This document shows, one piece after another, positions 7,507 to 11,147 of a stretch of DNA of 11,147 nucleotides; the first letter of the stretch is position 1; each line of letters begins with the position of its first letter. Under the pieces are notes generated by a model. It had not been told where the DNA came from and ran no database searches. It saw only the letters and a program-made list of their open reading frames with translations. This stretch comes from a virus (taxonomy: Duplodnaviria; Heunggongvirae; Uroviricota; Caudoviricetes), in the IMG/VR virus record IMGVR_UViG_2541047774_000004; one strand, given 5' to 3'. A program made the translations under genes and the position numbers.

Positions 7507-7533
7507 AGCCCGCCGGTTCAGGCGGGCTTTTTT
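7507..7533 (+). terminator. Rho-independent terminator downstream of lom
   Basis: AGCCCGCC (7507-7514), loop GGTTCA, GGCGGGCT (7521-7528) followed by a T-run through 7533; 27 nt after the lom stop. Confidence 0.65.
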
Positions 7534-7544
7534 GTGGGGTGAAT

Positions 7545-10500
7545 ATGGCAGTAAAGATTTCAGGTGTACTGAAAGACGGTGCAGGTAAACCGGTACAGAA
7601 CTGCACAATCCAGCTGAAAGCAAAACGTAACAGCACCACGGTGGTGGTGAACACGGTGGCATCTGAAAATCCGGATGAAGCCGGGCGTTACAGCATGGAC
7701 GTTGAGTACGGTCAGTACCGCGTTATTCTGTTGGTGGAAGGATTCCCGCCGTCACATGCCGGGACCATCACCGTGTATGAAGATTCTCAACCCGGTACGC
7801 TGAATGATTTTCTCGGTGCCATGACGGAGGATGATGCCCGTCCGGAGGCACTGCGCCGTTTTGAACTGATGGTGGAAGAGGTGGCGCGTAACGCGTCCGC
7901 AGTGGCACAGAACACGGCAGCCGCAAAGAAGTCAGCCAGCGATGCCGGCACATCTGCCCGTGAGGCGGCAACCCATGCAACCGATGCTGCAGGCTCAGCA
8001 CGTGCCGCCAGCACGTCAGCCGGACAGGCTGCATCATCTGCTCAGTCAGCATCTTCCAGCGCAGGAACGGCATCAACAAAGGCCACTGAAGCATTAAAAA
8101 GTGCTGCCGCTGCAGAGTCCTCAAAAAGCGCGGCAGCCACCAGTGCCGGTGCGGCGAAAACGTCAGAAACGAATGCCGCAGCATCACAACTATCAGCAGC
8201 CACTTCTGCATCCACCGCGACCACGAAGGCGTCAGAAGCTGCCACCTCAGCCCGGGATGCGGCGGCCTCAAAAGAGGCAGCGAAATCATCAGAAACGAAC
8301 GCATCATCAAGTGCCAGTAGTGCAGCTTCCTCGGCAACGGCGGCAGGAAATTCCGCGAAGGCCGCAAAAACGTCTGAGACGAATGCGGATAACAGCGCAC
8401 AGGCGGCAGCAGACTCACAAACTGCATCGGCAAACTCCGCGACAGCAGCCAAAAAATCAGAAACCAACGCGAAAAATAGCGAGGCAGCAGCAAAGAGCAG
8501 CGAAACAAACGCTAAAGCCAGCGAAACTAATGCTAAATCCAGTGAAACAAACGCGGCGAAATCTGCGGCGGACGCACTTAATTATTGCAACCAGGCGCAA
8601 GTAATTGTTGGCGATAATATCGGTCTTGGCTCAGCCCCGCGTGATTGTCCTGATATTTCCGGCAACCCATCAGGGTATATCGGATTTATGCGCATTATGA
8701 GTAATGCAAAAGGCTTTCCATCGATTGCATCCGGTGAAAGCAGTCTTACGGGGTTTATTAGTCAGGTAGATGGAACACCAGCGTATACAGGTGTATTTCA
8801 GGGATGGGCTACGCGCTCGCTTTATACTTATCGCTGGAATCCGACAACAGGCCCGCAATGGACACGCCACGCTCGCAAAAATGAAGTGGACCGTCTTGAC
8901 CAATGGAATAGCGAAACATGGTTATATAACCATGATAAATCCATGCGCCTGGGTTTAACCGGATCAACATGGGGGTGTTACAGCGACACACAAAAAAAAT
9001 GGATACCGCTTGATGTTTCTCATGGTGGCACTGGCGCAAATAGCCTTGATGACGCCAAAACTAATTTGCAAATCCCTGAGGGTGGATTAACAAAAGCGAT
9101 GACCCTTAATGCCCCTGGTGGTGCAGTGGATGGCAAATACTACCCTGTCATAATAGACACATCTGCAATGAATGGGAGCGGTGCCATGTTATGTCCTGTT
9201 GAAATAAAAACAGCAGGAGGTCCGGCATCAAATCCGCTTAATAGTAACTCATTTTTTGGGTTCATTCGATGTGGTGGCTGGAGTGACGTTCGCGATGTGG
9301 CTTACGGGTCATTTGTTTGCTATGAAAAAAATGAACTCGGGATACTTTGCATTAAAGCGTCGCAAAGAGATTATGCGCAGCATGTAGCTTTCTACATCCA
9401 TAAAAGCGCTTTTCCTGTCGTTGTGCAAACTGGCTACAAGGCGAAAGTTAAGGTTCCAACAGAAGACTACGTAATTGGTGACAACGGGGTTAGATATAAG
9501 TTTGGTGTATCAACGTCAACGGAGGATAACGACAAGAACTTTGTTAAAAATGTTCTTGACTTCACTGGCGGTGAACATGGCTTCTACAGCAACCTTCCGT
9601 TCAGACAAGGGGTGTCAGAAAGGATTGCATTAACAAATGGCCTGAGTTTTGACAAAAATTTTACCGTCACTATTCCTATATTTGTAAACAATGGTCAGAT
9701 TAAAGCAACACAATCTTTCACCGCGTACGGTACAGACGCTTCAAACAGAACATTTGTTTCTCAAAGATTACAATCCGAAGGAGGTCCGGTTGTCGATCAA
9801 ACTGAACTAAGGGCCGCTAACGCTTCTGGTGAAATTATTGTCAGGGACATAAATAATTCAGGGAACAGTAAGTTCTTTAATTTTAACCTTGATGGTACCT
9901 TCAGTTCTTACCAGGGATTGGTTGTTCACACAGGGCAAAACTGGAGCACTCAACATACAGATAATGTAAATAAGTTTAAGCCAATAGCAGGGAGCGCAGG
10001 CGGTCCTGACGGAACAATGGTTGTTGGCGGATTCCATGCTCAATTTAGCGGTAATTACGTCACACAATTCGCCGGTCGCAACTCCAAATTTTGGGCAAGA
10101 AGCTTTGAGGCTGGGGTTGATAAGGGATGGAAACGACTATTAACAGTAGACGATCTCAATTCATCTACCGATCTTGCTGTCAGGTCATTAACCACATCTA
10201 ACCCGGTAAAATCTGGCGGAGGGCGAATTGATGTCCTTGGAAGCACGTCAGACTATAGCAAAATGGATTGCTTTGTACGTGGGTTTGATAGCACCGGTAA
10301 TTCTCTCGCGTGGGCGTTGGGTTCATCAGTCGGCGTAAGTAAGATGCTGTCGCTAAAAAATTTCTTTAGCGGAGCTGAGATACTGTTAAATGGTAATGAC
10401 GGCGCGGTTCAACTCAAAACAGGTGCTGTTAACGGGGCTAAAGCGCAGGCGCTCACTATCAACAAGGATGAGGTTAATTCAACTGTTGATTTAACTCTTA

Positions 10501-11147
10501 CAAAACAAACAGGGACTGGCAATCGTTTTGTTTTACAGAACTTAGGTAATACAGAACTATCATTTGCCGCAAAAGTATGGGGATCAAGTGATCGACAAAA
10601 CGTTTTTGAGGTTGGAACGTCTGCTGCGTATCTGTTTTATGCGCAAAAAACGTCAGCAGGCCAGTTGTTTGATGTAAATGGCGCTATTAATTGCACAACG
10701 CTGAATCAGTCATCAGACCGCGACCTTAAAGACGATATTCTCGTTATCAGCGACGCGACGAAAGCAATCCGTAAAATGAACGGATACACCTACACGCTCA
10801 GGGAAAACGGGATGCCTTATGCTGGCGTTATTGCACAGGAAGTAATGGAGGCGATACCAGAAGCTGTGGGATCGTTTACTCATTACGGTGAAGAGTTGCA
10901 GGGACCAACGGTTGACGGCAATGAATTACGTGAAGAAACACGTTATCTGAATGTTGACTACGCCGCCGTGACGGGGTTACTTGTTCAGGTCGCCCGTGAA
11001 ACAGATGGTCGCGTTACCGCGCTGGAAGAGGAAAACATAACGCTACGTAAAAATCTGGCAACAGCAGGCACCCGGATCAGCACTCTGGAAAATCAGGTAA
11101 GCGAACTGGTTGCACTTGTCGGGCAGTTAACAGGAAGCGAACATTGA
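7545..11147 (+). CDS. stf: Side tail fibre protein (Stf-like): lambda-Stf-like N-terminus, Ala/Ser-rich repetitive shaft, divergent distal region, C-terminal intramolecular chaperone domain; about 1200 aa
   Basis: Continuous ORF to TGA at 11145-11147. N-terminus MAVKISGVLKDGAGKPVQNCTIQLKAKRNSTTVVVNTV...GQYRVILLVEGFPPSHAGTITVYEDSQPGTLNDFL matches the recalled lambda Stf N-terminus, followed by SETNA-containing Ala/Ser-rich repeats. The ORF track starts at GTG 7539 (MNM...); ATG 7545 (MAVKISG) is preferred by analogy to lambda Stf. Confidence 0.9.
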   Translation: MAVKISGVLKDGAGKPVQNCTIQLKAKRNSTTVVVNTVASENPDEAGRYSMDVEYGQYRVILLVEGFPPSHAGTITVYEDSQPGTLNDFLGAMTEDDARPEALRRFELMVEEVARNASAVAQNTAAAKKSASDAGTSAREAATHATDAAGSARAASTSAGQAASSAQSASSSAGTASTKATEALKSAAAAESSKSAAATSAGAAKTSETNAAASQLSAATSASTATTKASEAATSARDAAASKEAAKSSETNASSSASSAASSATAAGNSAKAAKTSETNADNSAQAAADSQTASANSATAAKKSETNAKNSEAAAKSSETNAKASETNAKSSETNAAKSAADALNYCNQAQVIVGDNIGLGSAPRDCPDISGNPSGYIGFMRIMSNAKGFPSIASGESSLTGFISQVDGTPAYTGVFQGWATRSLYTYRWNPTTGPQWTRHARKNEVDRLDQWNSETWLYNHDKSMRLGLTGSTWGCYSDTQKKWIPLDVSHGGTGANSLDDAKTNLQIPEGGLTKAMTLNAPGGAVDGKYYPVIIDTSAMNGSGAMLCPVEIKTAGGPASNPLNSNSFFGFIRCGGWSDVRDVAYGSFVCYEKNELGILCIKASQRDYAQHVAFYIHKSAFPVVVQTGYKAKVKVPTEDYVIGDNGVRYKFGVSTSTEDNDKNFVKNVLDFTGGEHGFYSNLPFRQGVSERIALTNGLSFDKNFTVTIPIFVNNGQIKATQSFTAYGTDASNRTFVSQRLQSEGGPVVDQTELRAANASGEIIVRDINNSGNSKFFNFNLDGTFSSYQGLVVHTGQNWSTQHTDNVNKFKPIAGSAGGPDGTMVVGGFHAQFSGNYVTQFAGRNSKFWARSFEAGVDKGWKRLLTVDDLNSSTDLAVRSLTTSNPVKSGGGRIDVLGSTSDYSKMDCFVRGFDSTGNSLAWALGSSVGVSKMLSLKNFFSGAEILLNGNDGAVQLKTGAVNGAKAQALTINKDEVNSTVDLTLTKQTGTGNRFVLQNLGNTELSFAAKVWGSSDRQNVFEVGTSAAYLFYAQKTSAGQLFDVNGAINCTTLNQSSDRDLKDDILVISDATKAIRKMNGYTYTLRENGMPYAGVIAQEVMEAIPEAVGSFTHYGEELQGPTVDGNELREETRYLNVDYAAVTGLLVQVARETDGRVTALEEENITLRKNLATAGTRISTLENQVSELVALVGQLTGSEH
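8150..8565 (+). repeat. In-frame degenerate peptide repeats (K-[ST]-SETNA...) in the Stf shaft, ending in three tandem 21-nt units
   Basis: Protein motifs AKTSETNAAASQ, AKSSETNASSSA, AKTSETNADNSA, KKSETNAKNSE, then tandem SETNAKA-SETNAKS-SETNAAK encoded at about 8497-8565 (agcgaaacaaacgctaaagcc / agcgaaactaatgctaaatcc / agtgaaacaaacgcggcgaaa). Confidence 0.6.
10713..11144 (+). other. C-terminal intramolecular chaperone / autoproteolytic domain of Stf (peptidase S74-like, as in endosialidase and T5 L-shaped fibre)
   Basis: Motif NQSSDRDLKDDILVISDATKAIRKMNGYTYTL with Ser (codon 10713-10715) and Lys (codon 10728-10730) spaced S-x4-K, followed by a heptad-like C-terminal helix ...TALEEENITLRKNLATAGTRISTLENQVSELVALVGQL at the protein end. 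Confidence 0.6.

Follow-up and report, generated by a model that had tools for sequence, protein, structure and literature searches.

The type member of the S74 family of intramolecular chaperones (MEROPS S74, Pfam PF13884) is the K1F endosialidase endoNF (3gw6), in which the serine-lysine dyad S911/K916 is assisted by R897 (PMC8326128) and exchange of the serine for alanine blocks cleavage (PMC4690869; PMC8326128). The same arrangement recurs in T5 pb1, where the Thr1263-Ser1264 bond is cut, Lys1269 activates the serine and the S1264A substitution blocks cleavage (PMC4690869), and in the ICA of myelin regulatory factor (MyRF), where either S587A or K592A abolishes cleavage and stalk residues are dispensable (PMC8326128; PMC3742443). 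The gp37 protein of Salmonella phage S16 is reported to be cleaved between two serines, DLNVS^SDRRIKK, with release of a 113-aa chaperone (PMC7917993). In S16, T5 and K1F the serine departs with the chaperone (PMC7917993; PMC4690869), and in endoNF and T5 pb1 an arginine 14 residues before the serine (R897 and R1250, respectively), supplied by the neighbouring chain, serves as a folding sensor (PMC4690869; PMC8326128). Here we compare these systems with the side tail fibre, Stf, of a lambdoid phage. That this protein belongs to the S74 family is already known and stands in public annotation, as do the family and its mechanism.

The stretch of DNA analysed, referred to here as the window, is 11,147 nucleotides long, and the features of stf described below lie on its + strand. 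It is a lambdoid tail module in which the genes, as identified by Pfam, follow the order H, M, L, K (JAB plus NlpC/P60), I, J, Lom and then stf. The tape-measure gene H is represented by its C-terminal 331 codons, in a frame that is open from base 1 and runs off the left edge; the listed open reading frame at 268-996 is only the part of this gene that follows an internal ATG. The stf gene occupies 7545..11147 according to its translation and the RefSeq and GenBank gene models, amounting to 1200 codons and a stop when read from the ATG. RefSeq starts the protein at this ATG (7545, 1200 aa), whereas the GenBank record of phage mEp460 uses a GTG two codons earlier, at 7539; residues are numbered here from the ATG used by RefSeq. 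Over its final 1248 nt the window shares 99.8% identity with mEp460 and 100% with prophages of several E. coli chromosomes. In RefSeq the identical protein goes by the name 'prophage tail fiber N-terminal domain and S74 family endopeptidase-containing protein', while GenBank calls the mEp460 product 'side tail fiber protein'.

Both names agree with what we find at the two ends of the protein. Residues 1-134 (7545..7946) form a lambda-Stf-type N-terminal anchor domain that matches Pfam PF08400 (phage_tail_N) over the full profile with E 1.3e-71, and the gene follows J and lom, so that both the anchor and the genome position are those of lambda Stf. Residues ~115-345 (window 7890-8580) are low in complexity and rich in Ala, Ser and Thr, with seven-residue SETNAK(S/A) repeats that correspond to a 21-nt tandem repeat of 2.7 copies at 8498-8554. 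The gap between lom and stf holds, at 7507-7533, a GC-rich hairpin followed by a T-run (cagcccgccggttcaggcgggctttttt), annotated in mEp460 as a rho-independent terminator; expression of stf would therefore presumably depend on late-gene antitermination. A search of NCBIfam with the whole Stf protein gave no match, and Pfam recognises no enzyme domain in it. Residues 351-1056, the distal part of the mature fibre, likewise matched nothing when searched against PDB sequences.

Near the 3' end of the gene, positions 10701-10740 read ctg aat cag tca tca gac cgc gac ctt aaa gac gat att plus one further base, in frame with the open reading frame 7539/7545-11147, and translate as LNQSSDRDLKDDI, that is L N Q S S D R D L K D D I. 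Ser1056 is encoded at 10710-10712, Ser1057 at 10713-10715, Asp1058 at 10716-10718 and Lys1062 at 10728-10730. The segment from Ser1057 to the C-terminus measures 144 aa and 15.8 kDa. The 1200-aa protein contains 13 copies of the S-x4-K pattern where its composition predicts 6.7, and most copies fall in the Ser/Lys-rich N-terminal repeats; the bare spacing is thus no better than chance and carries no weight alone. It is the context of the SDRDLK copy, a profile match and a set of invariant columns, that makes it non-random. Pfam PF13884 (Peptidase_S74) matches with 48.6 bits (cutoff 22) and E 1e-12, protein residues 1057-1108 aligning with positions 1-57 of the 58 in the profile, and among the S-x4-K copies only this one starts a match, with Ser1057 at profile position 1.

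Conservation of the site was assessed at two depths. Among the close homologues that cover it, Ser, Asp and Lys are invariant in all, and the residue preceding the conserved serine varies (S, G, H, L, I, A, N or T). A profile of the domain run against 1.84 billion representative proteins retrieved 36,522 members at E <= 1e-3, and the best 150 of these representatives, proteins no more than 50% identical to one another, contributed 153 domain copies. In this sample the serine is kept in 152 of the 153 copies, the lysine in 151 and the aspartate in every one. Ser1057 is accordingly the predicted nucleophile of the dyad, equivalent to endoNF S911, T5 pb1 S1264 and MyRF S587, and Lys1062 the predicted general base, equivalent to endoNF K916, T5 pb1 K1269 and MyRF K592; the invariant neighbour Asp1058 had gone unmentioned in the earlier note on this DNA. 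The distance from the serine to the C-terminus has a median of 128 aa in the 153 copies (interquartile range 118-137), with 127 of them between 90 and 200 aa. An S74 domain that closes a phage fibre or spike is expected to run for ~110-155 aa from serine to end, and the 144 aa found here lie at the long end of the family range because the terminal helix is longer. Within the wider family we also noted a 5473-aa protein (P0140) with four S74 matches along its length, which would imply several internal self-cleavage sites.

Profile searches of the PDB connect the domain to solved and CHARACTERISED members: S16 gp37 (6f45_A, E 1e-12), the MyRF ICA (7dc3_A, E 3e-7), T5 pb1 (8hqz_d, E 3e-5) and the neck-appendage chaperone of GA-1 (3gud_A). 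A single-sequence search found only S16 gp37 and weak T4 gp34 matches, so the profile was needed for MyRF, T5 and GA-1. At the junction the alignment to S16 gp37 is exact to the residue, NQS-SDRDLKD here lying on NVS-SDRRIKK. The GA-1 crystal chain opens with 'SDERHK', its first residue aligned on Ser1057, and Lys1062 is aligned with the K of AD..K in the MyRF chain.

S16 gp37 (6f45) is the best sequence match among solved structures, and the likeness extends to both sides of the cleavage point, from a common upstream strand (...GGAIYC in S16, ...NGAINC here) through nearly identical junctions (NVS^SDRRIKKDI and NQS^SDRDLKDDI). The two proteins differ in setting: gp37 belongs to a myovirus long fibre and Stf to a lambdoid side fibre; the S16 chaperone has 113 aa, whereas that of Stf has 144 and a longer coiled coil; and release in S16 exposes a docking face for the separate adhesin gp38, whereas in mEp460 stf is followed by no gp38-like or other same-strand gene. 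The remaining relatives are further removed. EndoNF is an enzyme of the tailspike type, its stalk a triple beta-helix and its tentacles very long, while Stf is a fibre without a recognisable enzyme domain. MyRF is a eukaryotic membrane-bound transcription factor whose ICA (7dc3; S587/K592) lies within the chain, ahead of a transmembrane region, whereas the domain of Stf is C-terminal.

The predicted fold points in the same direction. An AF2 monomer model of residues 1047-1200 (model residue i being protein residue 1046+i), built on a 32-sequence alignment of diverse domains from the representative search, reached pLDDT 93.3 and pTM 0.74 and matches only four solved chaperone folds, those of MyRF, T5 pb1, GA-1 and the K1F endosialidase. 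It replaced an earlier AF2 model whose alignment, at 14 sequences, was shallow; that model had pLDDT 64, and Foldseek returned noise only for it, for example ribosomal proteins. The S74 order of elements is seen in the model: a short alpha/beta part, a long beta-hairpin and a long C-terminal helix. The hairpin, or 'tentacle', is predicted at residues ~1108-1137 (10866..10955; AF2 strands E62-75 and E81-91), a topology described for T5 pb1 and endoNF (PMC4690869; PMC8326128). The helix is predicted to span 58 residues, ~1139-1196 (10959..11132; AF2 helix H93-150), with pLDDT above 95, and the domain profile also gives coiled-coil matches in the PDB. By analogy with the family the helix is predicted to form a trimeric coiled coil; as the models are monomeric, the long helix and the coiled-coil matches are consistent with a trimer and do not prove one.

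These results show that the C-terminal 144 residues of Stf, 1057-1200 (10713..11144), are an S74 intramolecular chaperone domain with Ser1057 and Lys1062 in the catalytic columns. Taken with the known behaviour of the family, they lead us to propose that the scissile bond is Ser1056-Ser1057 (10710..10715) and that a 15.8-kDa fragment would be released. We put the probability of this reading, in which the chemistry, the dependence on trimerisation and the release are carried over from the family, at about 0.88. The C-terminal coiled coil and the beta-hairpins would bring three nascent Stf chains into register, and the aligned chaperone trimer would then serve as the template on which the distal fibre folds. 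After trimer formation Lys1062 would deprotonate the hydroxyl of Ser1057, and the peptide bond between Ser1056 and Ser1057 would be cut within the same chain. The 15.8-kDa chaperone trimer would then dissociate, exposing the receptor-binding tip. Judged from the aligned cleavage site, the predicted mature fibre chain comprises residues 1-1056 (7545..10712; ~110 kDa) and ends in ...VNGAINCTTLNQS (TLNQS).

The earlier note, made from the letters alone, had read LNQS-SDRDLK-DDI at 10701-10740 as an S-x4-K dyad about 145 residues and ~16 kDa from the C-terminus, and the in-frame translation and the computed 144 aa and 15.8 kDa agree with it. Its placing of the mature fibre end at codon 10710-10712 coincides with the S16 gp37 cleavage site in the alignment, and its view that the released chaperone is of typical size fits a family whose median is 128 aa. 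The note had looked to a Peptidase_S74 profile alignment to place the catalytic residues, and in that alignment they do fall on Ser1057 and Lys1062.

It is formally conceivable, and in our estimate very unlikely, that the S74 domain assists folding as a genuine chaperone and yet escapes cleavage, remaining attached at the far end of the mature fibre. Versions of the domain that do not cleave probably exist, as three of the 153 copies have lost one member of the dyad (Cys for Ser, Gln or Asn for Lys; P0134, P0178 and P0182), and these substituted copies may, from their sequences, be non-cleaving. In Stf itself, however, Ser1057, Asp1058 and Lys1062 are intact, as they are throughout the close homologues. 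Our literature search on mEp460 Stf or prophage S74 fibres found no relevant experimental paper, and no published test of self-cleavage for the present Stf or a lambdoid Stf of similar type; S16 gp37, the closest solved relative, does cleave, and at the aligned site (PMC7917993). A further point in favour of a retained domain is the lack of an arginine at the sensor offset of endoNF and T5. We looked for one in Stf at -14 and found none: the position is Asp1043, and it is R or K in 6% of the representatives. Since MyRF cleaves without any stalk residue (PMC8326128), we treat the stalk arginine as auxiliary rather than as a feature that defines the family.

The missing sensor arginine and the nature of the region upstream of the proposed cleavage both count against the preferred reading. 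The segment directly before the site, ~10560-10712 (residues ~1006-1056; AKVWGSSDRQNVFEVGTSAAYLFYAQK...VNGAI), gives a weak match to an internal module of the T4 proximal long tail fibre protein gp34 (PDB 5nxf and 4uxe, E ~0.03) and also matches the end of S16 gp37, so that it resembles a T4 gp34 / S16 gp37 shaft module rather than a documented triple beta-helix. Its most conserved positions are G1013, G1039 and G1046. The best conserved basic residue upstream is Arg1017, at -40, which is R or K in 50% of the representatives and lies in the motif WG-x3-R-x2-VFE. A tentative suggestion, to which we would give rather less than even odds, is that the large gp37/gp34-like S74 subgroup senses folding without the stalk arginine of endoNF and T5, using instead Arg1017, Arg1059 or, like MyRF, no stalk residue.

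A second possibility retains cleavage by the S74 domain and shifts the bond by one residue, for example to the far side of Ser1057, so that the serine would be kept on the fibre, or to the near side of Ser1056. Stf does have two adjacent serines, and phi29 offers a weak precedent (PMC4690869), but the variability of position 1056 among the close homologues, together with the lack of a lysine at +5 from it, means that this residue cannot be the conserved nucleophile. In S16, T5 and K1F, moreover, the chaperone carries the serine away with it, and the GA-1 chain begins at the aligned serine, and we regard a neighbouring bond as very improbable indeed. The idea that SDRDLK is a chance S-x4-K of no catalytic meaning, for which the surplus of such patterns in Stf might speak, has a likelihood close to nil and is refuted by the Pfam match, the PDB profile alignments, the column conservation and the fold matches, this being the sole copy that sits in a significant S74 match, on family-invariant columns and at the start of a chaperone-like predicted fold.

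The preferred reading, an S74 chaperone released by cleavage between Ser1056 and Ser1057, has a counterpart in the genes around stf. Lambda relies on a separately encoded Tfa, whereas the present Stf carries its chaperone in the same polypeptide, and mEp460 has no tfa after stf: the next gene is DinI-like and on the opposite strand, followed by an Rci-type integrase (L002 5249-5795). The fusion of a chaperone to Stf explains why the phage needs no tfa gene. In a prophage of E. coli CE0026f (L001 5297-6110), a 126-nt tfa remnant that lacks the N-terminus lies past the stf stop and is followed by the pinR invertase. It looks as if an S74-type fibre end had replaced a Tfa-dependent, invertible one.

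The 3' end of the gene also turns up in other company. In E. coli assemblies, unrelated phage proteins are fused in frame to the 3' part of the S74 domain (P0024, P0028, P0032, P0054, P0057, P0063, P0075, P0076 and P0078), the partners being N-terminal or C-terminal parts of the terminase gpA, gpJ, gpK, gpL and a ParB-like Rac protein. Some of the junctions coincide with the SDR..K site (~10710-10715) or fall no more than a few residues away, and three different partners join at one point, just before TALEEEN (~11013-11020). The two contexts that we inspected (L003 6001-6543 and L004 1911-2225) are decayed prophages, in which gpL in one case and a ParB-like gene neighbouring trkG in the other are joined to the stf tail; both have the appearance of internal deletions, and short microhomology is seen where the DNA is joined. 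A site-specific recombination site at the fusion junction was considered and set aside, as the junction DNA (ACCGCGCTGGAAGAGG) is unlike any familiar site and shows short microhomologies, from which a hot-spot and a coincidence are indistinguishable.

The final 128 nt (11020-11147), which encode the coiled-coil tail, recur at >=95% identity (median 2 copies) in 805 of the 5426 complete E. coli genomes, and occur under differently named fibre genes, among them one annotated 'pyocin knob domain-containing S74 family peptidase'. Divergent S74 domains, ~32% identical over the aligned segment, end in the same ENQVSELVALVKQLTGSE tail. Comparison of these sequences suggests that the S74 domain boundaries are mosaic joints and that the tail is part of a shared mosaic 3' module. 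The two boundaries, one at the SDR...K junction and the other where the coiled-coil tail starts, may be preferred break-points of recombination or deletion, a proposal that we hold as tentatively as the folding-sensor suggestion made above, to which it forms the second reading.

The new biology in these results is small, since much is already established about S74 domains, their Ser-Lys chemistry and their role, and the protein is already annotated as S74-containing. Their practical use is to place the mature C-terminus of the fibre, as a prediction, at Ser1056. That end matters for modelling of the receptor-binding tip, for the design of chimeric lambda/Stf particles and for virion proteomics, and engineered fibres built from this module must retain residues 1057-1200 in cis. 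If the domain boundaries are indeed preferred break-points, E. coli prophages could swap fibre tips.
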